64,000 nt of DNA. Origin: Balanoglossus misakiensis. Its lineage: Eukaryota; Animalia; Hemichordata. A program made the translations under genes and the position numbers. The stretch lies in the NCBI GenBank assembly GCA_040954595.2, contig CM082589.2, forward strand, positions 11,234,894-11,298,893, in the 5' to 3' direction. The notes beneath the pieces are model-generated. The model was not told the origin of the DNA, searched no databases, and was given only the letters and a program-made list of their open reading frames with translations. This document shows positions 10,552 through 60,799 of this stretch, piece after piece (position 1 is the stretch's first letter; each line of letters opens with the position of its first letter).

Positions 10552-11001
10552 CACAGGGGGCTGCAAACATGAAAGTTATAAATGGCGAAGTACGTTCCAT
10601 TCTGCGTTTTCCCAACCTGTCTTATCATTTGCTAATCCAGAATAAAAGCTATCCATTTCCCATTAATCACCTGCTAACGACTTAATCTGTGTGCCCCATC
10701 CATGGATTAAGTTAATAAAGTAAACATCGGTCAGCGAGTACTGGGTATTCTCTTACCAAGTGAGAACTGACCGATGTTTACTTAATCCACTAAATCCGTG
10801 GATGGGGCACACAGATTAAGTCGTTAGCAGGTGCTTAATTGGAAATGCAATAGTTTGTATTCTGGATTAGCAACTGCTAAGACAGGTGGAGGTAACACAG
10901 AAAAATAAACAAGCACAAAGACTGTTCATCAATTAATGTTTATTGGGGGAAAATGCAGGAACTCCGCCATTTATAACTTTCATGTTTGCAGCCCCCCTGT
11001 G
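10552..11001. mobile_element. MITE / foldback non-autonomous DNA transposon with CACAG termini
   Basis: cacagggggctgcaaacatgaaagttataaatggcg (10552) is mirrored by cgccatttataactttcatgtttgcagcccccctgtg (to 11001). The internal arms at 10620-10740 and 10765-10890 are also inverted. Confidence 0.9.
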
Positions 11002-12952
11002 CGAGTACTACCACTTAGCAGTGGTTCAAGATGATCCTGTTGAAATTGTAAGTTTTTCTCTTATTTCTTTTTTGAACCTGGACCTGGTAATTAGCTTAGC
11101 TTGAGTAATATTGATTATTGGACCTGGTTTGATGTCTTAATATAACAACTACAGAAGAATCTCTGGACACAGTGAAATACACTCCAGGGTTATGGTAATG
11201 ACTGACAAATTGTCAGTTTAAAAAAGTAGACAAAGAACTCAGTTAAATATTATAATAAAAATATGCTTTTAATATAAGGAAAAGGTACAATTGATATACT
11301 TGTAATTAAAACATAAATATAATGATGAAATTCTTCAACTGTTCTGTAGTTGCACCAGTATTTGTATAAGCTAAAAATGTTGACTTCTGGCAGGACAACT
11401 CAAACAGATATTAAACTTATTTATAGTACTTCCACTTCATGACTTTGTTCAAAAATTTCCCAAACTTATTTCATTGTTGATGAGTTGTCACCTCCGAACA
11501 ACACAAAAAGGAACAGTTTGTATAAAAAAGTAATTTTGCATGAATCTTAAACATACATGCACAAGTTGAGTGAATAACACAATATAATCATATTCTACAA
11601 TGAATTACAATATCAAGATTAAGGGTTTCACATATGACATTACATTGCTACATTTTATATACATGAATTTAATTTGAAAAATTTCCATTGATCTATAACA
11701 CCATGAATAATATAAAAATATGCGAATAAATACTTTGAATTATTATATATACATGTCAGGTCTCAAAGTGAGTAACTATATTTCCATTCACCTATGAACT
11801 GGTTATTAACCAAATGAAATGATAGGATCTTTTATTTTGAGGATCTTATAATTGTGATCATACACATCCATATTCCAAAATTCGCATGCCAAACAAATAT
11901 CAGATTTATACGGCCAGTTGTAAAGACAGTACAAGGGGCAAAAAAATTGATAATAGTTAATCATCATCTCCCTTCTTTTACAGTCTTGGAGAATGGTGAC
12001 GGTTGAAGTCAAATTAAAGAAAAATATCAAGAAAAATATCAAAATTTGAAGCACTAATTCAGGAGGATATATATCATCGGGAGGTAGTCACTGAATATAT
12101 TGAGAGAAATAATTCATAATCTATGCATTTGGATGAAAAGACCTTCTATCTGATCAAGTTAAGGATAAATGCTGCCTTGTATGAATACAGAAGCAAGTCA
12201 GCATGCAAAGGGAGAGCTGAATTGGTACACTGTTAAATTTGTCCTCCAAATTCAACAAAAATATGTTGTTGTTTAGGAATTCTTGTATTATCATATCTTT
12301 TTCATTACACAATACCTTATAATAAGTCATAACAAATTTTTAAGGAAAATTCTTTAAAATATGTAAAATATATAGCCTTATAACCAACAACAACATAGAA
12401 AACATTTTCCAGTTTCCGAAAAATATAAATCTTGAGTAATTTCAACAGAAAAAATATGAAAAATCAGTAAAACTTGTGAATTTTGTATTTTTTTCAAAAG
12501 AAAAAAAAAACATGTAGCACTCATGTGTCTCATGCAGTATTTATTCAATTGAAAATTCACGTTTGATAATTTTCTGTCCGCAAAGATAGGTTACTTTGTA
12601 CAGTTGAAAAAAACGAAGTCATGTTATACATTTATCAAAGCATTTCATTTCAGCTGTTCAAGATAATTAACTAGTGTCACCCCTTTTATAGTTGAACAGT
12701 TCTTCATAAAATAATGAAAATAAATATAAATGTTTTGAAATTATAACTAAAATCGGTCGAATTTTCAGATAGCATGATAATATCATTTTTTACAAGAGAT
12801 TTATTCTACTGTCATGTGTTTTTTCATATTAGTCGGTCATTTTTGCAGAAAAGAGTTAATTTCAAATAAAACAATGAATATCCAATAAGAAAATGTTGGA
12901 ATTAAAGGCAGAGAATGGAAATGCGATTTTTTATTGGGAAAGGACTATGTGT

Positions 12953-14381
12953 CAGTGGCCAGACATGTCCGGACGCTCAGGAAGGCCGTCAGTGGCCAGA
13001 CATGTCCGGACGCTCAGGAAGACTGTCAGTGGCCAGACATGTCCGGACGCTCAGGAAGACCGTCAGTGGCCAGACATGTCCGGACGCTCAGGAAGGCCGT
13101 CAGTGGCCAGACATGTCCGGACGCTCAGGAAGACCGTCAGTGGCCAGACATGTCCGGACGCTCAGGAAGGCCGTCAGTGGCCAGACATGTCCGGACGCTC
13201 AGGAAGGCCGTCAGTGGCCAGACATGTCCGGACGCTCAGGAAGACCGTCAGTGGCCAGACATGTCCGGACGCTCAGGAAGGCCGTCAGTGGCCAGACATG
13301 TCCGGACGCTCAGGAAGACCGTCAGTGGCCAGACATGTCCGGACGCTCAGGAAGACCGTCAGTGGCCAGACATGTCCGGACGCTCAGGAAAGCGCTCAGT
13401 GGCCAGACATGTCCGGACGCTCAGGAAGACCGTCAGTGGCCAGACATGTCCGGACGCTCAGGAAGACCGTCAGTGGCCAGACATGTCCGGACGCTCAGGA
13501 AAGCTCTCAGTGGCCAGACATGTCCGGACGCTCAGGAAGACCGTCAGTGGCCAGACATGTCCGGACGCTCAGGAAGGCCGTCAGTGGCCAGACATGTCCG
13601 GACGCTCAGGAAGGCCGTCAGTGGCCAGACATGTCCGGACGCTCAGGAAGACTGTCAGTGGCCAGACATGTCCGGACGCTCAGGAAGACTGTCAGTGGCC
13701 AGACATGTCCGGACGCTCAGGAAGGCCGTCAGTGGCCAGACATGTCCGGACGCTCAGGAAGACTGTCAGTGGCCAGACATGTCCGGACGCTCAGGAAGGC
13801 CGTCAGTGGCCAGACATGTCCGGACGCTCAGGAAGGCCGTCAGTGGCCAGACATGTCCGGACGCTCAGAAAGGCCGTCAGTGGCCAGACATGTCCGGACG
13901 CTCAGGAAGACTGTCAGTGGCCAGACATGTCCGGACGCTCAGGAAGGCCGTCAGTGGCCAGACATGTCCGGACGCACAGGAAGACTGTCAGTGGCCAGAC
14001 ATGTCCGGACGCTCAGAAAGGCCGTCAGTGGCCAGACATGTCCGGACGCTCAGGAAGACTGTCAGTGGCCAGACATGTCCGGACGCTCAGGAAGGCCGTC
14101 AGTGGCCAGACATGTCCGGACGCTCAGGAAGGCCGTCAGTGGCCAGACATGTCCGGACGCTCAGGAAGACTGTCAGTGGCCAGACTTGTCCGGACGCTCA
14201 GGAAGACTGTCAGTGGCCAGACATGTCCGGACGCTCAGGAAGGCCGTCAGTGGCCAGACATGTCCGGACGCTCAGGAAAGCTCTCAGTGGCCAGACATGT
14301 CCGGACGCTCAGGAAGACTGTCAGTGGCCAGACATGTCCGGACGCTCAGAACGCTCTGTAAGTGGGGCTGGACATGTCCGG
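12953..14381 (+). repeat. Left subterminal tandem array, 37-bp unit, ~38 copies
   Basis: Unit cagtggccagacatgtccggacgctcaggaag(g/a)c(c/t)gt with period 37 (12953, 12990 and so on). Copies are nearly identical. Confidence 0.98.
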
Positions 14382-15253
14382 ACACTACACATTTAACACA
14401 AGTATGCCTGAACATGCAGATATATTTACAAAATAGAAATTCTTTATTAAAAATGAAAAGAACAACCATCAAGAACACTGTGGCCCTTTCTGGTGATTAT
14501 ACATAAACAGGTGTACACCAAAATTAAAACTACATTATATGCAAACATCACCAAAGTTGTACAACATCCTACTTCAATAACCATGGTGAACATGCCTACC
14601 AAAGCTTAAGGCAATCTGACGATCAAGTTAAAAGAATACAATGTTTATGAATAACTGCAAAATTCTCCTAAGAGCACAGATAATGCCAAAAATCGGCCAA
14701 AATTGCAAATTTTACAATAATTTGAGACCTTACATTTTTCATTCCAATATATCACATTATAAAAAAATTCGACTGGACATGCATATCAATTATTCAAAGC
14801 AATCTGACCAGAAGTTCTGGAATTTATTATTACAGAGTTTTGACAAGTTTTACATTTTCCCACTAATTTGCAATGACAACTTCATTTGAATGATATCTAC
14901 AGCCAGGTCTGCATCTACACACCAATTATGAATGTGATACACATAGTGGATTCCAATTTTTTGGTTTGGATGAACATACATACATACACATAAATACATG
15001 TACATACAGACCTATGTACATGCATGACGTTGACCTAACGATCCAATGAGGTAAAAGTAAGTAAAGTGGTTCTGTGGCTGTCATATTGACTCTTGAAAAA
15101 GTATGTTGCTGCGATATGAATGTCATGGCTATTTTTGTGACACTGTATTGTCCATGAAAAATTTCTGAAAACATAATCACTCATGGACGCAAAACAAAGA
15201 ATTTACCTTCTTTTATCTAAGTTGATATCCACATAGGTTTATAAAAGCTAAAA

Positions 15254-18200
15254 TTATGGATCATCCTCTTCCCAATCCATATTCTCTTCTGAATAATTCT
15301 CAACTGCTTGTGTCTCGCAACGAATACGGCAAAAGTCTGTCTTCATTTCATCATTGTCAACACCAACAGCATTTACACCATTGGCTAATGCTGTTACCAA
15401 GGCATTTCCTGAAAACAAAAAAATAGAGAAAGAGTTTCAGCTGTGCAGTAACACTACCTTGTACTTATGTTACAATGTCACCAAAGTAACACACCAGCCA
15501 CCAATCAAACTGATAGGAATGCGATGTGAATTAAAGTTTTATGAAGGTGTTCAGTAGTAATGTGTAACTGCTCACAGGGAATACAACTATACCACATAGT
15601 CCTGTTTAAACATCAGTGCACTTAAATTTCCTTTGGTGGCTAAATATCTATTAAAGTGGAACGTTGTGATCCGTTTTTGAGCCAATTCTGCGAAATGCGA
15701 TTAAAAAGTACTATGAAAAACGTTGGTTTCATTCACTTTCACTTACGCATAACAGAGCTACAGCCAGCCAAAAACTGCGCGAACCCGGAAGTGAGTGACG
15801 TCAGCAACTGTTGTCCGCTGCCGACGCGTTGGAGCGAGCTTATGCTTATACACGCCTGCACTCACGCGACCGACGACGTTAGCATAGCAACATATTCTCG
15901 GGTAGTAGGCTACAATTTTGAACCAGAGATTCCCTTCTACGACCAAGCGACTGAATTTTACAGAGGACAAAAGTTCATGCAGTTCTGATCTCCGATGTGT
16001 CCCGTTTGTCAAGGCTTACACTTGGTGTGGTTTCAGTGAAACCATAGACCCTAGAGTCTATGGTGAAACAGACAATGCTGCAATTAAACAATACCCTCCC
16101 TCGTTGTCTCTCCCTCGTTGTCACCTTTTCGAACCACTTTTCTTACAAAAATACTTAGTCACCTTTTATGGAGTTGAAAAGAACGCAGGTGCATCGTCCT
16201 GCTCTCCAGGTGTAGTACGTCCGTAGTATAATGGAAGCCAATGCTATAGTTATTGTATGCATGTTTCGTCTCTTGAAATGTATTAAAACTGCCCTTTTTA
16301 GTTGCTTTCATTTGATAACTATGCGATCGTCAATAAATGGAAATTAAACCCAAATACGTGTACCAAAAAACGTGCAGGAAGGATTTAATACGGTACGTTT
16401 ATTATTATCAGCGGCAGTTAGAACAACTTTGTATAGGCCTTACGGTTTGTTCATAAACGTCGACATGCATGGCATCATGGACATTGCAGGGTCTATGTCT
16501 GCACGCATCGACAAATACAATACTAGTACACGAAGAGCACTGCCTTTGAAAGAAACTTATCCCCGTCGATTTTCCGAATATGTTTTTAAAATCATGAACT
16601 TGACATTTCGCCATGTCAGATCCGCGCAAAATGTGTCTGTTTATTGGAAATGACACGTCGAACGTGTAAGTTGCTGACGTCACTGTAGTATTTTCAACGC
16701 GCGTCTACTGCTTGCGCAGGAAGTGAAAGTGAATTAACCCATCGGAACGTTGCCGTTTTTGACACCCGGATTGTACTTTGAAGCCCAAAATTGAGGGTGT
16801 CGTTCCACTTTAATATCTATTAATACTCTCAGGGATAAATATCATGTTTAAAGAATCTGAGAGGCTTTTTTTGAACAAGCAAGTCAGCTTAAATATTTCT
16901 CTGCATTACCTGATTATCAGGCAGTGAAACCAAACCAAAACAGACTTTGATAGTCCTGCACATTGCTGTATCATTGTACAAACTGCGGAATGGTATTTTA
17001 AAGTGTACAATACTCATCAATGAATTCTGCGTACTTGTCAAACATGTACTCTCAGCTGTGACAGCTGTCATATTTTTGGTTGTTTGTTTTGCTAGAGATG
17101 CTTATTTTTTTAGAATCATCTATATCATTGAAGCTTAGGTTTTTAAGTCAAATGAAGAATCTACAACCTTGTTTAAAAATTCTGGATCAGATGTCATTGT
17201 TGAAACATACCTGCGCCACATCTGCCGTCTAGCATCCATGATCCTTTATGGGTAAAATTCTTAATTATAATGTCATAGATTTTCCTGGGTTTCTGGTCGG
17301 CACAAACCATGCGTCCCTCAGCATCTCTGTCTGGCATGTCACTGGTAACAGTCCAAAAATTATGGTGGCCAGCCACAGACACTTGATCGTTGGTAACTCC
17401 ATTTGTTTCTGATGCATATGCAACAACAAATGCCTTGACAGCAGGTGTCATCGTGACTGTAGATACTATAGACATGAGAAGAGAAGAAAAGTATAAGAAA
17501 TATACCCTATACAATGTACATGTATTGTATCTGGTGCCATTTGATATTTACTTTTGCATTATGCAACAAGTAGCATCCATGGCATACAACATGACAGCAA
17601 TTTGAATTTACATTCCTATTCTGGAAAAATGAGATGAAAAAATAAACCAACAGCAAAGCTTATATGAGTAGAGCACAAATGTCTCATAGGAAGGCAAGTA
17701 TATATGCTCAGCTTTTCTCAGATCTTACCTGGTTTAGTATTTTCGATGTAATAAAATGCCTCCTCTATTTTTCGGAAGCATCTGGCTTCTTTCAGCGTAC
17801 TTCTTACCATAGACAACTTTTCAACGTCACAGAGTATCACTAGTCTATAGCTTCCTAATTTTGTATTTAGGTTCTTGACAACAATTGTCAACTCCCTCAG
17901 GTCTTCAGCTGTCCATTCCTGGATATTAAAAAGATCACACCAAAAAAGAATAAATCAGTTAGGATTTCCTTAGTTATTCAGAATATTTGTAAATACCAAA
18001 CTTTGACGGGCAGCGAACATGTATACTTCACACCAAATTTGAACTTGGTTGGCAATGTAGAATTTGGGAAGAAGTCATTCAAAGGTTTTCAGAAAATCCA
18101 ACATGGCTGCCAGGTCATGTGACTTATTAAATATTCATGAGTCACTGCACGACAACTCATTGGCCCCTATCAAGTTTGAGCCCAGTAGGTGCTGTGGTTT

Positions 18201-21200
18201 TTCAGATTTAGCTGGCCGAGAAAAATCAGGGAAGAAAAATAATAAGAACAAAAAATTCCAACAAAACCAATAAAGTACTTACAGCTGGTAAATCCATGAG
18301 GATTAACTCAAATCCTTCAGCGGTGACATCATTATCATCTAGATATTGTGGGTTTAGTTTAAGAACTTCAGTGTTGAACACTGCCCCTTGGCACTGGTGA
18401 CTGCCAGAAAAAACAGGGCAGAGCGCTTTCCTGGCAGCTTCATCCTTTGATGCAGCTCTCCTCAGTCGTCGACAATAACCCTTAAATGGTTCCGGTGCTG
18501 TTGGCTTGAAGTTTAGTGTAGCAAAACGTAGAAGACTACTACGATTTGTTGCATCTGGATACCTTTTCATAGCCTCGCTCCAATCTTCAACATCCATCTC
18601 AGAAATGAATGCCCGCTGAATTAGCAAGAGTTTTGTTAAAGTTTTGCTTTCTTTCACCATGTCATCAAGGCTGGTCCTCAGGTCTAAAACATCACGAACA
18701 AGTTCTTTTATGGTGTCTTCATCAAGGGAGCGCAGATGTTTAAACCGATACGGCTTTATATCAGGTTTGCTGATTCTGTCCTTTTTTAGCAGTCTCTGTT
18801 TTTTTATGTCACCTTGATCGTGAAGTTTGAACAGCTTCATAAACAAGGAATACAGATCCTCATCATACGATGCAATCATACATGCCATATCCACTTCCTG
18901 TGTGATCTTTTCCTGACAGACAAAAATAAAACAAATTAGTTATTTTCAGTAATTTAGATTCAGCAAGTAGCAATAGCCACCAATTTGCAAAGGAAAAACA
19001 AGTCAAAGCCACACTGTGAACATAGGTGACAATTGGCCAAATTTCCGATAAATCTTTTCATTTTAAACCACTAATGCAATGCACATATTGATGGATGCCC
19101 AGTGATTGGATCTGCTTATGAATATCAGTCAAACTAAAATTTACTAGGGGCTGCTTGGACTGCACTATTTCATCTTCAGTAATGAATGGTGTTTGTTAAA
19201 ATCTAGCAGTAAAAGTCACTCCAAGGTGCTATAATTGTTCTATGTAACTTAGTACCACTGCCAACATAATCAACATTGAATTACCTCATTTAGAATTATC
19301 TTGCATGAATTTTTCCACTCAGCCTGAGTGACATTCTCGGATATTGCTGATCGATTGGCACGGCAGATAGCCACCTATAATAAAAAATGTAACATAATGC
19401 CATTATGATCATGTACTGTAGTATACAGTGGTATGACAATGCAAGTCCAAACATGCAAAAATATAACAACTGAGAACATACCAGTATTAAAATTTGTGTT
19501 TGTGATCAGAGTTTATAAGGCTTCTCTCTTGGTGACCATTCACACACAAAATTGTGAAAGGCCAGGGATTGAGTGACCCTGCTTTATTTGATAGAATCTG
19601 AGCTCCTGCTCAAACAAACAGCATCAAAACCCGAATAATTTCTGACACCAATATCACATATTTACCTTGTCTTTAAACGACAGTCCATGGCGGAATTCGC
19701 CTGTTTTATTGTGTCGAACCCCAAGCCATTGTCTTTCTTCTTCACCAAGAGCAGCATACACAACACAGTTTAGCTTCTTGAACCGTTCTTCATTAGGGTG
19801 ACGCTTAGATAATTCCTGTGATGCAAGAAGTGTGTGGTTTCCTCCAATGACCTCATACTCATAACCATTAACCTGTTTAACATTTTAGGAAAATTAGAAA
19901 AATTAAGTGTCAAATCGACTTGTTACCAACTTGTGAACAATATACATATATAAATTTCTTCAAGGAAAAATTTTGCACTTTGACTCACCTTTGTCTTGTC
20001 AAATTGGGCTGTACTTGCTAACCCTTTCACTGATAGGCAGAGAGGCTGATAAGCTTCGTCCCTATAAACCTGCATGGACTTGATAAGACTTTTTAGGAAA
20101 ACTGGGTCCTGTTCTCTTACTTGTTGACTTCCAGTTTCTAAGGCACGTGTGCTGACCAAAAAATGACCTTGAATGCAAGAGGAACATGTTTTAGATCAAC
20201 AGACAATTTTCATCTTAACAGAGCTGTATGTTTTGGGGTATAATGATTATCTGTAAAAGTTCAATCCGCTGATCAGAACATCCAACTACTGAGAAAAGCA
20301 TGCAGATTTGAGTGTCCCATAGTAATGTTACAGAAACTAGTGGGAACACCATTTGCCTAAGCAGCACCTCCAACAAAATGAGTCTAATTTGGTGGTGCTT
20401 TTATTCTGTATTGGTTGAGGAGTGGGGATCATGACCTATGAGTGTCCAATTATGTACTATTGCAACATCATATAGATGTTAATTTCACATAAAAAAAATA
20501 GAATATAGTCACTGTAGCACTAGTAACGTTGTTATTTAGGATTTGCTCATTCTCTACTAAAAAGTAAAGTTTCCAGTAAATGGGAAAATTCATAACCTGC
20601 AAGTTGTTCAAAATTTTTCATGATTTGTGAATAATGTTTCTTGGAGCCTTTTTAATGAGTATTTAGCTTACAGTGGAACAGCATTACTAGTCTCACTATA
20701 TTTTTGAGCTCACAAAGTAACCTCATCCAGCTTTTTTGGGAATCGATTGGAAATCAAATTCAAATACAGTAACTTACCACAAAATGCACGCTGTACATTT
20801 GTTTCAACACTTAGTCTCTCATCATCTTGTGGTTTTTTCTTCAGTGATAAAGCACTCACAGATATGTCTGAAAGCTTGCGCTTCTTTGACCTGGCTCTGC
20901 TAACTAAACATGATTGAAAGAGACACATAATTGCTATGACAAAAACAACAATAGATCAGAATCAGAATACAGTGCCTCTTCATCCAACAAAATCATTATA
21001 CCCGAGATATTTCACATAGACTTAGCTATATTAACACTTACACTTTATCGAATGCTCTCTCTTTGTCAGCTCTACAGTGTGATTTTCCACTTCTTGGCGG
21101 GGTGCTGTCTTCTGACATACTGGATTCACACTCATCTTCTTCATCAATGGATGAAGTTGATTTCTCCAAGTTGACCTGCCCTCTCAGGGATTGAAATATT

Positions 21201-22061
21201 TCAACCATTTCCCCCGAAGAACAGGCTTCTCTAAACTTCTTGCTAAAGGGTGACTTGTTCCATTCGAAGAAATCTCTCTCCAAAATAAACCTAAATCCAG
21301 CTTCTTCGCTCCCTGTTACAAATTTAAACTGAAAAAAGAACGAATGGTTATCGATCAGAAATAGTCTTAGTTTTTGGGTAGTTCTCAGAAAATTATGAGT
21401 GCTGTACTATGGTCGAAAACGTGTAAACGTAGCTGTATCGCGGGGGTACAGGTCTGTGTGTTTCCGGTGTTACACGGCCGTGTACCGCCGGGAACACACG
21501 TACACAGACGTGTACGCAGGGCTAGGGTACCCACTATTCTCAATATACAGGCTCGGGCCGTTACTGTGGACGTACGTTCCCAGGCAAAACCTCGGACGAA
21601 CTCTGGTTTTGTGTCGTGTCTGAGCCTCGAGCTACGTAACAACTCGCTGTGGAGTCGTTGTACCATGGCTCTCCCTCGACAAGGGGATCGGATAGCGACT
21701 GTCCTTGAACGTGTAGTCGAGTGTACGCACATGGCTACGAACGCACAGAACTGCACTCTGTAGCTCTGTGTACAGGTCTGTGTCGCCGGGCTGGTCCCCG
21801 GCGTGGTGGAGGCCGTGTAACGCCGGGAACACACAGACCTGTGCGCAGAGCCAAGTCCCTCAACAGGGACTTCGCCTATATGTACCAGTATTACAAAAAT
21901 ATGCTTACCTTGAGCTTACCGTCGGCTACAGACATCGACTTAATCGCACCGAACTCGGTACCCTTCTTTCTATTCTTCATACGGCACCGCTTACCATTTT
22001 CCAGGCAGTAGAGATACACTTCGTCATCTACTTCTTCGAGCCACCACTTTCTCTTGCCCAT
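15254..22061 (-). CDS. Transposon-borne ParB/Srx-like domain plus beta-class amino-methyltransferase-like protein (~752 aa, 10 exons)
   Basis: Exons (GT-AG, phases consistent): 22061-21909 (ATG in ACCATGG), 21328-21042, 20899-20778, 20167-19989, 19872-19666, 19374-19285, 18912-18283, 17918-17729, 17456-17211, 15408-15254 (TAA). ParB-like part: QVRE..LKSLIKSM..YQPLCLSV..YEVIGGNHTLLA..RHN. MTase-like part: LILMDLPAEW (motif IV position), QKPRKIY, WMLDGRCGAGNALVTALANGVNAVGVD (motifs I-II). Confidence 0.8.
15655..16809. mobile_element. Non-autonomous Kolobok-like element in the last intron of the ParB-MTase gene
   Basis: TTAA|AGTGGAACG ... CGTTCCACT|TTAA. Internal inverted motifs: gtgacgtcagcaact/agttgctgacgtcac and ttcactttcactt/aagtgaaagtgaa. 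Confidence 0.8.
18030..18272 (-). repeat. Fragment of the dispersed repeat family at 40458-43930, inside a transposon intron
   Basis: caccaaatttgaact...atggctgccaggtcatgtgact...actcattggcccctatca matches 41440-41640. Confidence 0.75.
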
Positions 22062-22129
22062 GGTGAAATGTTGGACATCTCTCTACTAGGAAGCGTCTTA
22101 TATAGGTGAAAACTGCATTCATCTTAGAG

Positions 22130-22353
22130 CGTTAAACGGTTGACAAGGCTTGGATCACCACTGCTTTTGCAATTGTAGGTGTTAATTGTTTACCCGACGC
22201 TTGGCAATGCTCTACAGGGACGACGCTGTCACTTCCTGTTTACTTCCAGGCGCGCAAGCATCGTTTGGGCGAGTTTATTTCCAATGTTGAGTCCAAAGCA
22301 TTGGGCAATCTTTGATCAACTTTTAACGCGCAACATCGGCGAAACTTTTGAAC
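22130..22353. promoter_or_regulatory. Duplicated block upstream of the ParB-MTase gene (copy 1)
   Basis: cgttaaacggttgacaaggcttggatca...gtcacttcctgttta...gcgcaagcatcgttt...gttgagtccaaagca is also present at 24313-24582. It is CpG-rich and begins ~70 bp from the ATG. Confidence 0.5.
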
Positions 22354-24312
22354 AAAAATATGACAAGTCCGATGTTCTGCCAAGGCAGAACCATTTCCGG
22401 TTACCGCAAAAATAAACAAATAAATAAATACGCGGTCAATACACTTGTCTACGGCTCTCGAGCTCCGCGCAGTAACCCCCAAAAGAAATGGTGCTGGTCT
22501 TGACATCTTGATATCAACGATGCGAATTTTAACTTTTTCCTCCTTGGATCAATCCTAATTGTCCACATTCTCATGAAGTTTTGCTATACCCCTGTATATA
22601 TATGGCGGAATAAATTGCACACTTAGACAATGCACTGTGTTCTGGATGTCACTGTACAACTTTACATGTATTTTAGCACAACATTGAAAACTCGGACTAC
22701 TTCAGGTGGTCTGCGGGTAAAATGGGACGCGTGATGCTGACCACAACCATTTCATTATTTTTCCTTTTTTGGGCTGAGACGTAATGCAACTGTAGCAACA
22801 CCTGATTTGCAAGCCTACACTAAACTGAACGTGGAAGTGCTCGTCGACCCTACCAACATTTTCTAGCTCTGCGCGCGTACTGCAGGTCTGTGTGTTCCAC
22901 AGACCTGTGCGCAGAGCCTGACGCAGAGCTACACATTTTCGAGAGACATATCATTCTATTTTAGTATTTAACGGAATTTTACACAAAGAGGTTTGCAATT
23001 GTAACCATGCAATTTTATTCTAAAATGGCTTTAAACATCAAATTAGTAGCTACCAGGTTTCGCGCCATATGAGTGCTTACGCGTACGCTGTGCTTCGGAC
23101 CCAGCTGCCCACTGATCACATATAGACGGACGCCGCGCGGGCATCGTACGCGCACGCTCGCGTTGCAGAGCGATATACCAAAACTACAGTCACTCCACAC
23201 TGTACAGCTACATGTGATGTGAGAATCCACCGCAAATAGACTTTTATCTAGAGTAAAAGTAAACTTGGAGATTTGTGTGTTATTTTTTATGACGAGTGAA
23301 GTTGATCGTATAGTTTCGAACTTTTCACCAAAACACGTACACCGCGGCCCGCTAAATATGCAGCGGCGTTGGCTGGTTTATCACAGCGGCCCAACTGGCC
23401 TACCTGGGGTCTATATTAAGTTGGTGGAAATATGGGACATGTAAAATTGTTTTGCTGCCTTCACTTTTCATGTAATCTGACGATATCAATGTGCAAAACA
23501 GGTCGATTTGTTTCAAGGAATAGAGAAATCGATGGTCAGTGTACGGGTGTCAATCGGTTTCTTTTGCACCACGGAAACATAGACCAAAACATAGCTACCA
23601 TGACAAGTGAAAACTACTAGTATTTTATGTACCAGCCGCAGACAATGGTAGATGATAGAGAAGGTAGCGAGTGATCTTTTTCGAACATCCATGTATACAA
23701 GTCGTTTTTCAGGAGCCGTGCAACTTCCTAGGGCAACCTCGAGCTGCAGGCGAGAAGTTGTTCGCCAAGAGCTGTGAAAACGACGAATTGCATTTTTAAT
23801 GGGGAATGCCATGTATTCCAAAACCATTAATGTGACAGGATTTCAAAAAGTCTAAGAAACTTTCATTGTCGGCGAGGTCAAGTCAGTGCAGTCGGTCAGG
23901 ACATGTACGCGTTTCCGCGCAAATATTTATAAACGGTCGCTGCGACAGAATCTCAGCCTAGGACTTATAGAGTGTGACTTGTTTCCACATTTCGATGACT
24001 GGAGTTTCAGTTGTCAAGCGCTGAACTGGCCCGAAACCATTTCGGGATTTCTGTGTTTTTTTAGTTCGGCCGGTAAAGGTGACAAATGTCAGTTTGCACG
24101 AAAACAATTGCCCTTTTAATCGATCTAATCGTGACATAGCTGTGGTACTCAGCTTACCGGTATGGAATTTACCAAGAGAAAATGTCATGGAACCATAATT
24201 TTAAAGATCTTTACTGTAAATGCTAACGTTGTAAAATGTAAAATTTTCTGCATCTGGATTATTGATCTGTCCTCATTACGTCACACAGGTGGTGATTCAT
24301 GCGATAACGCCA

Positions 24313-24582
24313 CGTTAAACGGTTGACAAGGCTTGGATCACACCACTGCTTTTGTTATTGTTTATCCGACGCTTGGCAATGGCTCCACAGTGCCGGCGCA
24401 CCTGAACCTGTACTGGTTGCAGCTGTCACTTCCTGTTTATATAATTATAAGAAATGCAATGACTGACGCGCAAGCATCGTTTGAGCGAGTTTATTTCCAA
24501 AGTTGAGTCCAAAGCATGGGCAATCTTCGGTCAAACTACCTTGGTCAAACTTTAACACAAAACATTTGCGAAACTTTTGAAC
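24313..24582. promoter_or_regulatory. Duplicated block upstream of the transposase (copy 2)
   Basis: Direct-orientation copy of 22130-22353, ending ~220 bp before the transposase ATG. Confidence 0.5.
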
Positions 24583-24800
24583 CCCCCAAAACCCAAACTA
24601 ACAAACAAACAAACAAAATGACAGACTTTATACAAGCTCGAAGTTCATCTTTCGACACTTCCGTGTGACGTATGCCCGGGGACGTACGCATGGGCTCGTC
24701 CTACCCCGACCCCCCTCGAAAATAATAAACAGGTCAATGAGACGGACATCGAAAATCGTGTATAAAAAGTCGAGCTTGGCCAGTGACAGGGCAGTAAATC

Positions 24801-27800
24801 ATGGCGTGCACATCTCGAAGTAGAAGTCCAGGAGCCAGCAAAACCTTTTCAGGAGATTCCTCTTGTGAACTCCTGTTTGACGAATCAACTGACAGTGGAA
24901 GTTCAGGAGCCAGTGAATTTTTTTCAGGAGATTCCTCTTGTGAACTCCTGTTTGACGAATCAACTGACAGTGGTACCTTGCCAGATTCTGACGGTGAGTC
25001 CATCGGTAATGATGACAGCATTTCAGTTGACCTGCCAGTGCCACGCGATTTTGACCCAGAGAACGTTGACAGAAGTAAGGGTCGTGATGAGTGCCCCGGG
25101 TCAGATCAAGACGACACAACAGAAATTGTATACGATGATTATAGTTCTGACAGCGATGACGAGTCATCGGCTAGCAGTAGCAATAGCTACCTGGTAGGGA
25201 ACGAAGAGTTCGGCGTCGAGCAACCGACCCACAGGCGTCCGACGATGTCATCCTCTACACCGGCAAAGAAGAAACGACGTATTGGTGAAGTGGTTCGAAA
25301 CCCAGCCGAGGTTCTGATGAAATGTTGCTGCGAAGACCTGTGTCTTAGAAACGTTACAGTGAACGACATTATAGCCTGTGATCGAAGAATGAAAAACATG
25401 AACGAGTGTAGACAAAAACAATGGATACTTTCATGTATCCGCGATAATTCATATAAGCGGTTCATAAAATCGAAACCTGTGGTAGAAGTGAACCTAAGGA
25501 TCGCCGGAAGAAGTATTTGTCGTTTAGCCTGGCAAATTGCCCACAACGTTTCTGACTATCGTTTTGAAGAATGCATAAAGCTTTTTCGGGATGATGTTCA
25601 CTCTGTGAGACACGGCAACGAAGGTCGAAAACTCATGCGAGACAAAACGTCGGCTGCAATAGCATGGATGCGGTTTTATTTTGAACGAATGGGCGATTAC
25701 ATGCCGAACAACGCAGGCAAAGTCATTCTACCGTGTTCGTGGACAAAGTTGATGGTGTATGAAAGGATGAAGACGGAATTCGTGGAGAGATGTTTACCAA
25801 AAGAAGCTATCATCTGCTATGATTACTTTTGTAAAGTGTGGAAATTGCATCTCTGTGAGTTCGTTATAGGAAAGGTAAGTACTGTTCTGCAGCATGTAAA
25901 TTGTAGTTGCAATGATTGTGGTGGTGGTCAGTGGACGCTGCTTGACGTCCGCACAGACAGTGTCGTCAACCGAGTAGTACTCGCTATTTGCTGCCTAAGG
26001 CTGTATTTTATGACGATAAATGTCTCTTGTTCTAAATGAAAGTGTAACTTTTTTTATGTAGACCCACTGCGCCATTCTTTCTTCATATTGTTACAGTAAT
26101 TTTCTTGTTTTTATTTCTGTCTCAGGGACATGAGTTTGTTTGCTGTGATACATGTGTTCAACTCGATGAACAGTATGCCAAAGCGAAGACAGAGTATGAG
26201 AGAAATCAGATAAAGGCACTGGTTGCTCGTCATTTAAGCCAAGTTGAGTAAGTATCTTCAGAATATAATTCCTATCAAATACAATTTTAAAAAAGAACAA
26301 CAAGTCGTTCAACTTATAAGGGTAATTATTTTGTTATATCAACATATTGCATTGCCATAAATTTTGATGTATTATCCACACCATATACTGTTCTAGTCCA
26401 TGTAGCTTGTTAAAATGACTTTTCCCTATTTATTTGTTATAGGAATGAGCGCAAACGCTTCCACTATCACCGAGAGAAAGCTGAGAAGGAGCCGGATGAA
26501 ATAATGGCAATAATACAAGATGGAATGGATCAAAACAAGACTGATTTACCTCATCTTGTTAAAGAGGACAAGGCTACATCAAATTTATGGAGATTGAGAA
26601 CGCATGTCACAGGTACCATTTACATGTAATAGTCAAATAGTTTTATCTACATTCAGTGAATTATTTATATCGAATGACAACACATACTGTGGATGAGGTG
26701 TGTTACAGTTAGTGAAATTCTGTCTAAGTGGGATTGTACCCCAAATGACGCATTCCCAGATGAAACACATGCGCTATTGTTTATAAAATATTATATTTTT
26801 CTTTACACAGGTGACATTCTCCATACTGGAGTTGCCAGTGGAAAGATCCCGTATGTTTTTATTGATGTCAACGAAATTCCACACGACAGCAACTTGACTC
26901 TAAATATTCTGTTGGAGGTATTGGTTGCTGCCAAAGACAGACTGGCGAAGGCATTATACTTGCAACTAGATAACTGTTTTCGGGAAAACAAGAACCGTTA
27001 TCTTCTCAGTTTAATGGCCTTGATGGTCCAGCTGGAGATCTTTGATGAAGTAAGTATACACCTGTTTTATTATTACAATATGTTTTGACACAAACCAGCT
27101 GAACACAGAAACAAACTTTGGTTGTCTGATAGTTAATTTACAGGCGTTGCATGTAATTTCAGGTGACATGGTATTTAATAGTACATGTATATATAGGTTT
27201 ATTTACAACGTGCACAATCACAGTTTCTGTGGTGCAACCAAATTGATGAAAATATGGAGTAGATAGTCGACTTATTGCAGCTTTACAAATATTTTTATTA
27301 CACATCTATGTGAATTTTCTGCCGGTGGGTCATACACATGAAAACGTTGACCAAATGTTTTCAAAAATATCTGCGGGGTTGAAGAGAGCCAATGCCTACA
27401 CACTGGAAGGTGAGTCTAGGTTTGAATGTCTGAGTACAGATAAGGTGTGTGTGATAGACCTCTACACGTTTGCTACTTATTCTTATATTTTTAATATTGT
27501 CGAAACACTACCTTGTTGACTGTAATTGCCAATATTTAACCCCTTCCACAAAATACTCTGCCCATTCAAGTATTTATTGCTGTTAAATCCCAAGAGTGGA
27601 ATCAAATGTTTCAGAATATGTGATCAACTTTGCATTAAAAATCTGATGTTAAGGGGTTAACAGCACTATTATAAATAGAACTTTACATTCAGTAGTAAAT
27701 CAGTGCTTGTAAGTTGTAAAATTATATCCTGAAATTGGAAAATGGAAGACACTCTTCTGTACATACATGTATATCCTCTTTCAGATCTGATGACAATAAT

Positions 27801-29702
27801 CGCCAGCAGCTACACACCTACCATCAATGTCAAGCTACTGAAGAGCACCTTGAATATTAAAGAATGGTTGATTCCGCATATACATACAAGATTCTCTGGC
27901 CACTCACGTCCACACAATTTCCGTTTCCGAAAAGTAGATGGCAAGGCGTATATGAACTACAGGGAATGGTCGACTGACGCATGGCAGCCACTGAATAAGG
28001 ATGGTGCTGATTCACCAGGTCTTCTTTGCCTTAAGGTATGTGTCACACACGCATCACATGAGTAGGCTATTTTCATGACCTGCACATGACATTCGATCCT
28101 TTATTGTACAACAATGTACTTCCATTGGTATGAATTCATTCAGTCTGCTAAATAATAATACAATGAAGAACGAACTGAATTACCAAGGTGTACATGGAAA
28201 TGTCCTATTGCCATAGACCATTTGCTCTGTGCTGAATAACGTAATATTGTGTGACCATTGTATTTCTTACAGACTATCCCTGACATCAATGTGCCACCAC
28301 AGTGGGTTGTTCCCAGTTTATTGAAGCTGGATGTGGATAACCTTACCAGAAGTTTACCAAATGGGTTTAGGCACAGAATGCCTAGTCAAGCAGTTGAAAA
28401 CTAGAAAGAGTTCATGGCCAACATTAAAGACCTCGAGAAGGTAAATAATTTAACTGAATCCTTGTTGTGGTAACTTTTTCTCAAATATTTTTTCCTAGAC
28501 TGATAGGAAGAGGGTTTAAATGCAATTTTCACTCAAAGTTTGTGCCCCTGAGTGGTATTATCATTGATCACATCAGATATAAATCAACATTATATTCCGA
28601 AGTTTTATGTTTCAGATTAAATAAAACCATTCTCACATTTATACATCCAGGTTCCTCCTACCACTCCTCAAGAATGGCACCTTCACATTTTGAAGGAGGC
28701 AGCAGAAAGAAGGAGACAAGGCAGAGCACATGCGATGGAATGTATTCCTGATAATATCAAGAAGATAAGGGATAAATTGACTGTCCCATGCCCTCCAGTA
28801 AGTGTAAAATTGAAGTGCACTTTTTTTCTTGAAAGTTTGTTAATTGATATCTCTGTTTGCTGGTGCTTGCAATGTGAACTTGTATACACAGTACAATGTG
28901 TGTTCGTACTGTCTTGAAATTCTGAAGAATCTGTACAGAATCAAACATTTGTTTTTATAGGTAATAATAGGAGCCCAGGGTAGGGAAGTGCCAGCTCCAG
29001 TTCAGGAAATGGAGGATTTCAGCTCAGTGACGAGTGGAATGCTTGTGGCAGTATGGGCACCAGACAACGATGCCAGGCCCCAACTCGCAAAAGTTCTCGA
29101 TAGAGGGAAGGGAATGCTGAAAATACATTGGCTTGTGGGGAACTATAATGGCGCATGGAAGGAGGCATACCATGGCGTGGGAGCCCGAAGGACAGCATGG
29201 CTGGATGATATTCCAGTGCAGTCTTGTATTTTGTGGGACTTTGCTTTCACAAAGAGGAACCACCTTAAGAAGGCAACAGTGGACGAATTAAAAAAGAAAT
29301 ATTTCGAACTTGACACAATAAGGTAAGACCCCCTCTTTGCATTCACATAAATTTAATGTATTTGTTTTGTTTCCTCTGTTTATACATCACTCTTTATTAG
29401 GATACTCTGCCATATGGAGATGATGTCAAAACAGGTCATCTTGTATGTTTGATGCATTTTTCTTATTAATATACTGGTTTTTGCTTTATAAAATAGATTG
29501 AACAATACAGTTGCAGAGGAGTTATGGTGTGTTGTGAAGAATTGATGAAAATTACAAAAGCATATATGCTTACTTATTTGAAGAAATGAATTTGTGCTAG
29601 GGTTTTAGCCATGTTTATTGAAGTTTTCATAATTACTTCCTGTTATTTACAATTTGCAGTGATGATGACGATAGTGATGGTGCTGCGAACAGCCAGATGT
29701 GA
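24801..29702 (+). pseudogene. Sola-like (DUF7869-type) DDD transposase, ~890 codons, 10 exons, damaged
   Basis: Exons: 24801-25874, 26126-26247, 26443-26612, 26811-27049, 27304-27409, 27785-28035, 28273-28440, 28651-28797, 28961-29322, 29660-29702. Motifs: CCDTC..H, IIQDGMDQNKTDLP, HVTG, LYLQLDNCFRENKN, FLPVGHTHENVDQMFS. Lesions: CAC instead of CAG acceptor at 27301-27303, and an in-frame TAG at 28402-28404. Confidence 0.85.
27540..27656. mobile_element. Small TTAA-flanked MITE (piggyBac-like ends) in a transposase intron
   Basis: TTAA|CCCCTT ... AAGGGG|TTAA. Confidence 0.5.
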
Positions 29703-30033
29703 AGACCCTCCAGGGCTGACTGAATGAAGTCTCTTGTTATTTGTTTGTACAGACAATTTTTGATCAAAAATAATGATCTCTAGCACCGTTTGTAAGACTG
29801 CCATGCCACAAAACAGTTTATTTGGCCCTTTCCTTAATATATTTTTTACATTTCATATTTATATGTGGCTGCTTCCCAATGTCACCCCTGTTTTTTATTC
29901 TGGTGTATATCTAATTCTGTGCAATCCTCAAATGGGACCGCAGTGCCCTTGATGCTATTGTTGTAAATAAAGGCATTACAGTAAACAAATGAGAAGTTGT
30001 TTGTTAGTTCATATTGTCTTGGCTCCTTCCTCA

Positions 30034-30590
30034 CTGAGTTTCGGGACATGTCTGGCCACTCAGCTTGCTGAGTTTCCGGACATGTCCGGCCACTCAATGG
30101 GCTGAATTTCCGGACATGTCCGGCCACTCAGCTTGCTGAGTTTCCGGACATGTCCGGCCACTCAATGGGCTGAATTTCCGGACATGTCCGGCCACTCAGC
30201 TTGCTGAGTTTCCGGACATGTCCGGCCACTCAATGGGCTGAGTTTCAAGACATGTCCGGCCACTCAGCTTGCTGAGTTTCCGGACATGTCCGGCCACTCA
30301 ATGGGCTGAATTTCCGGACATGTCCGGCCACTCAGCTTGCTGAGTTTCCGGACATGTCCGGCCACTCAATGGGCTGAATTTCCGGACATGTCCGGCCACT
30401 CAGCTTGCTGAGTTTCCGGACATGTCCGGCCACTCAATGGGCTGAATTTCCGGACATGTCCGGCCACTCAGCTTGCTGAGTTTCCGGACATGTCCGGCCT
30501 CTCAGCAAGCTGAGTTTCCAGTGAGTTGAACGGCTGGACATGTCTTGAAACTCAGCCCGTTGAGTGGCCGGACATGTCCGGAAACTCAGG
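30034..30590 (-). repeat. Right subterminal tandem array, 34-bp unit alternating as a 68-bp dimer, ~14 copies plus 2 inverted copies
   Basis: Units ctga(g/a)tttccggacatgtccggccactca(gcttg/atggg). The reverse complement tgagtggccggacatgtccggaaactcag resembles the left-array unit. Orientation flips after ~30520. Confidence 0.95.
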
Positions 30591-31186
30591 CAGCTTGGTA
30601 ATGACATTACTTTGACTGGTAGGGCATATTTTTATACAAAAGTTTATATTCTATTGATATATTCATTTTTTCACATTGAAAATTGCAAAATATTTGAATG
30701 CCGTAATTTTTTTTTTATTTTAAGTGCAATAAGCAAAAATATGTATTACTTTTTGGTGCTTACATTATTTCTTCAGAATTTTCTCAGATTGAGATTAGAA
30801 AAACAAAATCCCATAAATTATTGCAGTAAAGAGGCAAAAAATAAAATTATTAAATAAATATAGTTTTTTCTGTGGTAATAATGAGAAATAGTCTGTTTTT
30901 CGGAAACTGGGAAATGTTTTCTATACTGTTCAACATACTTTAAAGATGATTATTTATGATCATTTCATTCAGATGTTGCTAAGAGTGTAATAATAAAGAT
31001 CTGTTTCACTCCAACCAATTTAATGTGCGCTTATCACAGTACTGTCGTCTGACAAAGCATAACTATTATTGTTATCATTTATGGGATTATACCAAGCTTA
31101 TCACAGTACTGTGTCAACTCACAAAATGAAAACCATTCTAGTTATCATTTGAATTATACCATACATGTACACACAGAGATGGCACA

Positions 31187-46900: not shown

Positions 46901-46989
46901 GGTTATAAACAAATGTTTTTTTGTGGACAGTTTTAGTATCAAGCATTGTGGAATTAAATATACACAGTGTGTGTTGTGTGTTAGATAGG

Positions 46990-47247
46990 TACATACATAC
47001 ATACATACATACATACATACATACATACATACATACATACATACATACATACATACATACATGCATACATACATACATACATACATACATACATACATAC
47101 ATACATACATACATACATACATACATACATACATTGTATGTATGCATGCATACATGCATGCATGCATGCATGCATGCATGCATGCATGCATGCATACATA
47201 CATACATACATACATACATACATACATACATACATACATACATACAT
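46990..47247. repeat. Compound (ACAT)n/(GCAT)n microsatellite
   Basis: Directly visible. Confidence 0.97.
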
Positions 47248-47281
47248 GGAAAACACACAGCAAATGGACTCCTTTTTTATC

Positions 47282-47353
47282 ATCCTCACCAGGAATCGAA
47301 CCAGGATCCCTTATCACAAAGTGACAAGTGCGTTAACCATTACACCATGAGGA
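47282..47353 (-). pseudogene. tRNA-derived sequence (pseudo-tRNA or SINE head)
   Basis: TCCTCATGGTGTAATGGTTAACGCACTTGTCACTTTGTGATAAGGGATCCTGGTTCGATTCCTGGTGAGGA has an A box, a B box (GGTTCGATTCC) and acceptor pairing TCCTCA/TGAGGA. The anticodon arm is irregular. Confidence 0.65.
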
Positions 47354-47626
47354 TTGTTTTATCTCCACTAACTGCCAACACACTGTCCAATTGCACATTC
47401 ACTCACTGACATATTCAACACACCAGTTTTTTTATTTCAATAAAAATTCACAAATGCATGTGAGAAATAACAGAGAGTCAGAAATTGGCATCCACAGGAG
47501 TTACTGCATTGCTATATGGTATTATAGAGCAGCCAATGCAGTCTAACACTTTTATTAGCTTATTAAAGGCAGAAAGTCTCTTTGCTGCCCTTTTTTAATA
47601 ATTATGTGTGATACAAGAGACTGTTA

Positions 47627-47813: not shown

Positions 47814-49086
47814 GTACATTAACATAAATGGTGTCTTGCATCAAACATAATTAATGGAAAAGGGTCCCTTTAATTTATATACTTATCAAATTGTAAGCTA
47901 ACCAATATGGTTAGAAGTCCGATTTGCTTGGACGTGAACCAATATGATCTATCAAAATTTTCTGGTAAAAGTTTGAGTAACTATAACTTGTGCTTTCACC
48001 TTTTTTCATCATGTTGCTTGGGCCCTGACAATGCTGCTTTATAGCTACTACAGGATTAGATTACTTCCATTTGGCAGTAGCATATAAGTGTAATGGTGTA
48101 GAAAGTTTATCCTGTTTACTGAAAGAGGAATTGCAAGAGAAACCATGTGTTATAAAAAAAAACTAGAAGATATTAAATAGCCTTAGTAAACATTTCCCAG
48201 AAACATTTCAATGAACAGTTACCATAATGTACTTTACATTAGAGTCAGAGGTGACTAAAAGGCTAATATTGTCATTTGTGAAATGTACACAATTGTATTT
48301 ATATTGTCGGTGAACTGTTTAGCTGTGTTGTCAGTTATGTTGAGCTTATTAGATTGGGTGATTGTCTTATTGGGTGAGTGGTGTCACTGTCTGTCACTTT
48401 TCTTTACTGAAACCACGGGGCCAATTACTTTGAAATTTAGTATGCAGGTTCCTAGGGTGAAGTTGGTAGAGTTTATGTAAATTGTGGTGAAATGTGTAAT
48501 TTTTGATCAATTTTAGTTGTGTTTAGTTAAATTCTTTGTACAATTACTTTGAAATTTAGTGTGTAGGTCCTTGGGGTTGATTTTACTGGAATTTGCTCAA
48601 TTTGTGACAGAATGTGGAATATGTTATTTCGGAAGCAATTGCTTGTTTGGTCTTTTTTATTTCATAAACCAGATACTGTGATTGTTTTTCTGTTCTTTTT
48701 TGTATGTGTGTCTATTTTCACAATTGAAATAAATTAATATAAGGCTATATAAAATAAATTGGTGTTTTATGCTTTTTGTTATTGATATTGTTTGTATGGT
48801 TGATATCAGATATCATATGTCTTATAGTGAGAAAGAAACCACTACACAATCCCTAGTAGTATTTGTGGTAATATATCTGTTTTGAGAATATAGCCCATTA
48901 GTATATTGTAGTCTTTGTACAACTTTTCTTCAAAATGTGTTATATGAACAAATAAAATATGGCAAGAAGATGAATTGTTTCGAAGAATGAATCATAATAA
49001 ACAGTAGAATTTGGTCAATTTTTGTTCAGGCATAAAGAAATAGCTTGTACATGAGCTTGCACGACGGTATTTGGTCAATACAGGGC

Positions 49087-60777: not shown

Positions 60778-60799
60778 GTGAGACATAAAATACTGTTCC

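Follow-up and report, generated by a model that had tools for sequence, protein, structure and literature searches.

A ParB-like and methylase-like accessory gene in a candidate 18.5-kb DNA transposon of the hemichordate Balanoglossus misakiensis

A stretch of 64,000 nucleotides from the genome of the hemichordate Balanoglossus misakiensis (GenBank assembly GCA_040954595.2, contig CM082589.2, positions 11,234,894 to 11,298,893 of the forward strand) was analysed; it is referred to as the window, and all coordinates are positions within it. On the minus strand, at 15254..22061, a predicted ten-exon gene was found that encodes a ParB/Srx-like domain followed by a beta-class methylase-like domain, and we are fairly confident that it is an accessory gene borne by a transposon, a candidate element of 18,542 bp at 12389..30930. 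On balance, we favour the reading that the encoded protein likely binds palindrome arrays located towards both ends of this element and would mark or organise the element that carries it. The original prediction, made from the DNA letters, had described a prokaryote- or phage-style fusion of ParB with a beta-class amino-methyltransferase that is carried by a transposon, an interpretation that is partly supported by the analysis reported here.

Results

Gene model and conservation

The exon chain was predicted by scoring frame-keeping GT/AG pairs among the stop-to-stop open reading frames (ORFs) of the minus strand, and the resulting model is that of an intact, intron-rich, open gene. Its exons are located at 22061-21909 (exon 1, with the ATG at 22061), 21328-21042 (exon 2), 20899-20778 (exon 3), 20167-19989 (exon 4), 19872-19666 (exon 5), 19374-19285 (exon 6), 18912-18283 (exon 7), 17918-17729 (exon 8), 17465-17211 (exon 9) and 15408-15254 (exon 10, with the stop codon at 15256-15254). 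The spliced frame of 2268 nt corresponds to 755 stop-free codons including the ATG, plus the stop, in agreement with the approximately 752 codons that had been anticipated. The expected nine introns were likewise recovered, all with GT...AG borders (9/9), a length of 116 to 1802 nt and mostly strong donors, three of which read GTAAGT. The strings on which the original prediction was based (QQVREQDP, LIKSM, YQPLCL, YEVIGGNH, GVRHNKTG, LILMDLP, DQKP and LDGRCGAG) were all found on the minus strand at the positions it had assigned to them.

Intron 1 contains a GC-rich stretch (21385-21915) in which both strands have long open frames (up to 176 amino acids) with many Cys, Arg, Thr and Pro residues. 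Tandem-repeat calling returned nothing for this stretch, which probably represents either a degenerate repeat or the insertion of an element.

A search of a collection of 5.8 billion proteins with the 69-amino-acid ParB-like exon yielded two homologs, an uncharacterised protein of 722 amino acids from Ptychodera flava (P0001) and a partial one of 433 amino acids from Saccoglossus kowalevskii (P0002). Repeating the search with full-length P0001 (proteins of 397-1264 amino acids) returned the same two proteins and no others; both searches were word-based, so that distant relatives may escape them. With the 237-amino-acid ORF of exon 7 as query, no homolog was found among longer proteins. The window protein aligned colinearly with P0001 (51.6% identity over 704 aligned columns) and with P0002 (49.2% over 419 columns), and the identity between the Ptychodera and Saccoglossus proteins was 51.4% over 426 columns, making the three approximately equidistant. 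Long stretches, such as WLGVRHNKTGEFRH, are invariant among all three. As judged from these alignments, the colinearity of the spliced frame with its hemichordate homologs far exceeds chance.

P0001 is colinear with the predicted exon chain at all junctions but the last, where its annotation continues into the last intron and is without the last exon. Backing for the exon 9/10 junction comes from an alignment to a phage-methylase hidden Markov model (HMM) that spans it, with LDGRCGAG before and NALVTALANGVNAVGVDNDE after the junction, opposite lDntlGsGttgvaaknlgrkfigiekd.

The ParB/Srx-like domain

The ParB/Srx-fold domain is encoded by exons 4-6 (19306..20165, minus strand; protein residues ~189-339). 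A tblastn search of phages with exon 5 revealed actinobacteriophage proteins annotated as 'ParB-like nuclease domain/partition' (best E 5e-4), and among a total of 84 matched records (E<=10), 57 were from Mycobacterium phages; rows for Escherichia, Salmonella and Listeria (E ~8) look like noise and were set aside. The box EVIGGNHTLLA of the window protein reads EVLAGNHTLLA in the phage ParB-like proteins. An HMM built from five of these proteins gave 25.1 bits on the spliced protein, compared with 5.6 bits for the best of 2000 shuffled sequences. When the three hemichordate sequences were compared by hhalign with 47 phage ParB-like sequences, retained from 79 IMG/VR loci found with the phage alignment after apparent duplicates had been skipped, a probability of 95.6% (E 1.1e-8) was obtained over 129 columns covering exons 4-6. 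Searching P0001 against PHROGs revealed two ParB-like families (E 3.3e-4 and 0.005), in the expected order before a DNA methyltransferase PHROG (E 0.0096). The phage templates themselves matched several PHROGs named ParB-like partition protein (E down to 7e-87) and, in addition, the N-terminal third of PHROG 498 ('DNA methyltransferase', 633 positions).

For structure prediction with AlphaFold2 (AF2), P0002 was supplied with an alignment of 51 rows, comprising two hemichordate proteins, four window exons and 45 phage sequences, the core of which had been checked beforehand. The model had a mean predicted local distance difference test (pLDDT) score of 72.6, with values of 80-95 over residues 181-350, and all eight Foldseek matches in the PDB at E<=1e-3 were ParB, Noc or PadC. 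VIA-align gave Z 10.2 for PadC (root mean square deviation 3.3, 98 residues aligned), 10.1 for Myxococcus ParB and 10.1-8.8 for ParB/Noc structures, including CTP-analogue-bound ones; over the PadC/ParB/Noc range, deviations were 2.4-4.4 with 90-101 residues aligned. Sulfiredoxin followed with Z 7-8 and SbnI with Z 6.5-6.9. According to this model, the ParB/Srx fold that had been predicted is present in the Saccoglossus homolog, to which the window protein is 49% identical and colinear.

The methylase-like domain

The beta-class, PF01555-like methyltransferase-like domain extends from the end of exon 7 to exon 10 (15257..18456, minus strand; residues ~499-746). Of the nine phage records matched by exon 9, seven were annotated as DNA methylases and aligned via QKP...LDGRCGAG, each match being weak when taken alone (E 4-10). 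An HMM from six phage methylases gave 30.1 bits (E 3.3e-8) on the spliced protein, the best of 2000 shuffled sequences reaching 8.5 bits. By hhalign, the C-termini of the window and Ptychodera proteins matched eight phage methylases with a probability of 97.0% (E 1.2e-10) and a set of 72 phage methylases, the distinct sequences from 80 IMG/VR loci, with a probability of 93.1% (E 3.1e-7). These alignments are colinear over 205-238 columns, from GFELILMDLPAEW (opposite siDMILCDLPYGTT) to the C-terminus, and cover a whole 250-amino-acid methylase including motif IV; the phage templates are identified by Pfam as PF01555 at E ~1e-29. The motifs follow one another in the order IV, X (QKP) and I, which is the beta-class order and is colinear with the phage PF01555 methylases. 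On this sequence evidence, the C-terminal domain is a PF01555 homolog with permuted motif order.

The N-terminal domain and the helical region

Exons 1-2 (21042..22061, minus strand) encode a conserved, beta-rich N-terminal domain (MGKRKWWLE...FEWNKSPFSKKFRE), which corresponds to residues 1-116 of P0002 and was modelled with a pLDDT of 78-92. It is possibly PH/PTB-like, VIA-align scores to PH, PTB and FERM-F3 domains being weak (Z 5.2-6.9). Exon 7 (18283..18912, minus strand) encodes a helical region after the ParB-N part, followed by the start of the methylase-like domain and ending in motif IV (LILMDLPA). In the P0001 model, the helical region is represented by residues 325-457, which aligned with the helix-turn-helix (HTH) domains of ParB from Myxococcus and of Spo0J at Z 5.2-7.0. 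For a helical domain such values are low, and the region is possibly a ParB-type HTH.

Structure of the candidate transposon

The ends of the element were located by blastn, a generic inverted-repeat listing having been swamped by the right array. The left terminal inverted repeat (TIR; 12389..12423, plus strand) pairs with the right one (30896..30930, minus strand) over 35 bp at 91% identity (30930-30896 in the alignment; E 1.9e-8 in that search space), and this 29-35-bp repeat occurs in only two copies within the window. Directly outside the TIRs lie candidate target-site duplications, CAAC at 12385..12388 and CAAC at 30931..30934, both read on the plus strand, the latter appearing as GTTG on the minus strand; a 4-bp agreement at a fixed boundary is expected by chance in ~1/256 of cases.

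Inside the TIRs, two subterminal arrays were found. The left one (12951..14381, plus strand) consists of ~38 copies of a 37-bp unit with the core CCAGACATGTCCGG (37.8 copies with 95% match according to TRF; 38 motif matches), and the right one (30034..30589, minus strand) of ~16 copies of a 34-bp unit, as called by TRF, containing the perfect palindrome CCGGACATGTCCGG (13 perfect motif matches). The two arrays have opposite orientations, with 74-75% plus/minus identity in blastn over 505 bp. With at most one mismatch, the 14-bp palindrome is matched 51 times in the window, always in the two arrays, versus 0.01 matches expected.

Between the arrays, a multi-exon transposase-like gene (24801..29326, plus strand) is located 2.7 kb upstream of the accessory gene and in divergent, head-to-head orientation to it. 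The gene is intact, and a candidate splice chain was built for it; three of its exons matched PF25273 (DUF7869) colinearly, at positions 15-97 (E 5.5e-27), 91-127 (E 5.7e-13) and 123-192 (E 2.6e-12). The residues DQNK, DNCFRENKN and GHTHENVD look like a putative DDE-type triad. In the first coding exon, an in-frame 75-bp tandem duplication was observed (24819-24973; 2.1 copies, 91% match).

Because the TIR pair, the CAAC flanks and the inverted arrays enclose both genes, the region 12389-30930 is taken to be one transposon, and the carriage that had been proposed for the gene is supported by these features together with the adjacent DUF7869 gene. As far as the sequence of this single instance tells, TIRs and a candidate duplication enclosing a transposase-like gene make it a probable cut-and-paste transposon. 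Assignment to Sola1 was considered and not adopted: a 4-bp target duplication is described for Sola1, at AWWT (accessible text of PMC3845634, citing Bao et al. 2009), so that the length fits and CAAC does not, and Pfam names only DUF7869.

Phage relatives

The phage contig at IMG/VR locus L091 carries a 414-amino-acid ORF in which a ParB-like domain with the GNHTLLA box precedes a beta-class methylase with a DPPY motif. On this fusion, Pfam gave E 7.5e-18 for N6_N4_Mtase and, for ParB_N, E 0.011 with 16.2 bits versus a cutoff of 26.3. Its pairing of a GNHTLLA ParB with PF01555 agrees with the phage style foreseen for the window protein, and by sequence the architecture of ParB plus methylase is phage-style. 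Fusions of the ParB fold to N6_N4 methyltransferases (PF02195+PF01555) are stated in the accessible part of PMC12704722 to be enriched in phages.

Stand-alone phage ParB-like genes were found directly before a DpdA/queuine-tRNA-ribosyltransferase gene in four of the five records opened; in StAugustine a DnaQ-like gene lies between the ParB-like and the DpdA-type gene, and the neighbour in Phelemich carries no annotation. Among these phage records, the ParB-like gene directly precedes the DpdA-type gene in L001, L007 and L008, and the two are one gene apart in L009. The GNHTLLA subtype of ParB seems to be tied to DNA-modification enzymes generally.

A scan of viral contigs seeded with exon 9 revealed three stand-alone phage methylase loci; of the two inspected, L012 adjoins a terminase gene and L013 does not. 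The nearest phage methylases of the DLPY type (L012, 1967-4327; L002, 1-2145) lie immediately before a terminase large-subunit gene, which corresponds to the 'ParB-terminase locus' context of phages in the accessible text of PMC4738411. Two metagenome scans gave a single locus, L014, whose 18-residue match was judged spurious. An Atlas search was unproductive with exon 7 as query. With P0001, it provided leads only, namely viral PF01555+PF02195 clusters at 0.79, the nearest with a name, and two eukaryotic hypothetical clusters at 0.90 and 0.89.

Other features of the window

Outside the element, an isolated hairpin-like inverted repeat is present at 10654-10847, with 94-nt arms that are 86% complementary and spaced by 6 nt. 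A tetranucleotide microsatellite of the ACAT/ATGC type with strong GC skew occupies ~2.7 kb at 48992-51711 and ~0.5 kb at 46787-47409, reading ...IHTY.../...CMYV... in every frame. A 440-amino-acid ORF at 62642-63964 (minus strand) contains Integrase_H2C2 and rve domains and is interpreted, because of these domains, as the integrase of a long-terminal-repeat retrotransposon; the adjoining plus-strand ORFs at 59623-62120 are rich in Ser, Arg and Pro and have no Pfam match.

Discussion

Weighing of the accessory-gene reading

In the reading we favour, the ParB-like part of the accessory protein, perhaps together with the following HTH, would recognise the palindromes as ParB does parS. By binding there, the protein would enrich its methylase-like domain, fused to the ParB-like part, on the element, where this domain might methylate the DNA or, if catalytically dead, act structurally; the element as a whole would move by cut-and-paste. 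This specific binding-and-marking mechanism is put forward tentatively and is doubtful rather than expected. A bolder version appears quite improbable: that a deuterostome transposon possesses a parS/ParB-like system of its own, in which a ParB-fold protein on the ~50 end palindromes writes N6-methyladenine or N4-methylcytosine (6mA/4mC) via a D-x-P-x-x-W pocket, as a phage-descended self-marking device kept for hundreds of millions of years in hemichordates.

A number of observations weigh against the favoured reading. The exon chain is a prediction from splice sites and homology, and the mobility, the exact ends and the 4-bp duplication of the element rest on a single instance. The Pfam tests of both domains covered single exons and P0001, and neither domain reached its gathering score: no relevant match at E<=1 was obtained for the eight single-exon ORFs, ParB_N (PF02195) was matched at E<=1 neither by these ORFs nor by P0001, and N6_N4_Mtase gave 17.5 bits (E 0.0042) on P0001, which is without the last exon, versus a cutoff of 26.7. 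The profile and structure check that had been suggested for the two domains had a divided outcome, returning the ParB fold and phage profiles for both, but no Pfam assignment for either. NCBIfam returned nothing for the phage ParB-like proteins or P0001. The phage ParB-like templates had no match in Pfam, NCBIfam or PDB sequences and are tied to ParB by PHROGs and the fold search only; a PDB profile search with their alignment, like PDB sequence searches with part of the exon 9 ORF and with P0001, gave only noise.

The structural evidence is subject to similar reservations. The good ParB model is that of the Saccoglossus homolog, not of the window protein, and 45 of its 51 alignment rows are phage sequences. 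The AF2 model of P0001, based on a five-row alignment, was poor (mean pLDDT 48.8, both domains below 50, no Foldseek match at E<=1e-3), and the methylase fold is therefore a prediction from sequence; the C-terminal region in this model gave weak rows (Z 4.8-5.4) to COMT, RsmC and MnmM.

Departures from the canonical motifs concern both domains. CTP-binding ParBs carry an arginine-rich box, GERRxRA, the equivalent of which reads GGNHTLLA in the window protein and GGQHTLLA in its homologs, without the arginines. No ParA-like gene was present among the ORF lists for the element. As judged from the box and the partner gene, the protein does not resemble a canonical CTP-switch ParB of the ParABS type. 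The catalytic motif IV of amino-methyltransferases is (D/S)PP(Y/F/W), and the window protein is without its second proline and its aromatic residue. Since the motif reads DLPAEW rather than DPPY, catalysis is doubtful; of the amino-methyltransferase that had been predicted, the beta-class domain with motif IV ahead of QKP and motif I, colinear with phage PF01555, stands, and enzymatic N4C/N6A methylation is in doubt.

The same motif leads to the first alternative, which we hold to be somewhat unlikely, namely that the gene is the same accessory gene with a catalytically dead methylase-like domain that serves as a DNA- or SAM (S-adenosylmethionine)-binding module, making the protein an end-organiser or transposition regulator without a methyl mark. 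A dead enzyme would agree with the motif IV sequences DLPAEW (window) and DVPNDW (Ptychodera), where the nearest phage methylases have DLPYG or DPPYG, and with the change of HPTQKP to CADQKP. Against it, D-x-P-x-[DE]-W is kept between the window and Ptychodera proteins at only 52% identity, and the SAM-loop pattern D-G-x-x-G-x-G (LDGRCGAG) and QKP are kept as well; the conservation of the variant motif IV, the SAM loop and QKP at this identity speaks for constraint on the methylase pocket.

The arrays, too, need not be ParB sites. Subterminal repeats are a usual place of transposase binding, and transposase-binding arrays of this kind are common in large DNA transposons. Under a second alternative, rather unlikely in our estimation, the palindrome arrays would be sites of the DUF7869 transposase, and the ParB-methylase-like protein would act elsewhere, for instance against host silencing; a physical link of the ParB-like domain to the arrays is indeed a prediction. 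What speaks for ParB binding is that a dimeric HTH binder, like ParB on parS, would be well served by the 14-bp palindrome core with its perfect symmetry in the right array, and that arrays beside ParB-domain genes recur in red-algal Plavaka elements (accessible text of bioRxiv 10.1101/2025.02.11.637652). The weak resemblance of the post-ParB-N region to the ParB/Spo0J HTH (Z 5.2-7.0) points in the same direction.

A third alternative, distinctly unlikely, is that an old transposon- or phage-derived ParB-methylase gene was domesticated and kept for a host function, its transposon neighbours being relic or coincidence. The approximate equidistance of the three hemichordate sequences (49-52%) with their long invariant stretches would suit such a host gene, and so would the intron-rich structure with canonical splice sites. 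The single annotated homolog per hemichordate species, together with the single-member cluster of P0001, also fits a domesticated gene. However, a TIR-bounded unit encloses the gene, which has one of the inverted arrays on either side and an intact transposase-like gene as its head-to-head neighbour, and ~50% identity between species is also possible for transposon families. Finally, that the motifs came together by chance in decayed or non-coding DNA is a practically negligible possibility, as the lack of Pfam matches for single exons stands against a 755-codon open spliced frame with nine canonical introns, colinear ~50% homologs and profile matches to two phage families that are significant and follow the expected order.

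Significance and origin

In 2025, transposon cargo combining ParB with a methyltransferase was put forward as a new class of accessory genes whose products would bind and modify the element itself, for algae only, and the gene described here is an intact animal example. It comes with two conserved hemichordate homologs and with a candidate binding site, namely the 14-bp palindrome of the two inverted end arrays, so that the proposal becomes directly testable on one defined 18.5-kb element. Such tests would also be relevant to whether animals have amino-methylated DNA and a dedicated writer for it, which is disputed. The ParB-methylase-like family falls below Pfam thresholds and escapes standard annotation, and for this reason it is probably under-counted.

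A phage origin of the accessory gene is plausible on sequence grounds, since for either domain the best matches with a name are phage proteins and a phage contig carries the fusion. In the ancient horizontal acquisition that had been proposed, the gene might also have come directly from a different eukaryotic transposon, because algal transposon relatives have been published.

Comparison with known systems

The phage fusions (L091, PHROG 498) resemble the window protein in domain order, in the ParB subtype (EVLAGNHTLLA versus EVIGGNHTLLA) and in the beta-class methylase with motif IV ahead of QKP and motif I. They differ in being intronless, in their length of ~400 amino acids and in their canonical DPPY/DLPY motifs, and they are without the N-terminal beta domain and the ~200-amino-acid helical region. 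Identity between phage fusion and window protein is low, pairwise BLASTP giving E 0.002 for the ParB part only. The best sequence matches of the window ParB-like exon are stand-alone actinobacteriophage ParB-like proteins (Saguaro gp1, Finch gp210), which have the GNHTLLA box in common with it; they adjoin DpdA/queuine tRNA-ribosyltransferase, so that their DNA-modification partner is a separate transglycosylase, whereas in the window protein a methylase is fused.

Among animals, the N4CMT of bdelloid rotifers is reportedly a host gene, fused to a chromodomain, that acts as an active 4mC writer and is without a ParB domain. The window gene shares with it the presence of a bacterial-type amino-methyltransferase gene in an animal genome, and no transposon carriage of N4CMT is reported in the accessible parts of the two sources (PMC8885841, PMC10406627). 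In the accessible text of a survey of eukaryotic adenine methylases from 2015, ParB comes up solely in connection with Dam-like proteins of chlorophytes and chytrids and with phage ParB-terminase loci, and no animal clade of the ParB-methylase kind is named (PMC4738411). A full-text literature search yielded descriptions of ParB-methyltransferase transposon cargo for algae, no animal report and no mention of 'DUF7869'.

In red-algal Plavaka elements, tandem inverted-repeat arrays adjoin a gene for a ParB-2-oxoglutarate (2OG)-oxygenase protein, according to the accessible text of bioRxiv 10.1101/2025.02.11.637652. The Plavaka proteins PAG2 and PAG3 are comparable to the window element in that ParB-domain and N6-adenine-methylase-domain proteins are borne by a transposon with arrays beside the ParB-domain gene; they differ in that ParB is joined to the 2OG oxygenase in one protein and a second protein combines the methylase with a SET domain, and in the transposon superfamily.

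Another counterpart is Sola1-1_Ec32 of Ectocarpus, a 21.5-kb element for which the accessible text of PMC12477816 describes a 1104-amino-acid protein with ParB-like and N4C/N6A DNA-methyltransferase domains, encoded on the strand opposite the transposase. The authors suggest that such accessory proteins form a class whose members bind the transposon encoding them and modify it, and they describe similar proteins from elements of green and red algae. The window element differs from Sola1-1_Ec32 in that its transposase is recognised as DUF7869 only, its candidate duplication is CAAC and does not fit AWWT, its motif IV is non-canonical and its genes are flanked by palindrome arrays. Sola1-1_Ec32 stems from a brown alga, its protein is longer (1104 versus 755 amino acids) and the likeness is one of description, not of sequence comparison. 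In these terms, both are large DNA transposons (21.5 and 18.5 kb) with an accessory gene opposite the transposase, and in both this gene encodes a ParB-like domain together with a DNA methyltransferase domain of the N4C/N6A type or, in the window protein, its methylase-like counterpart.

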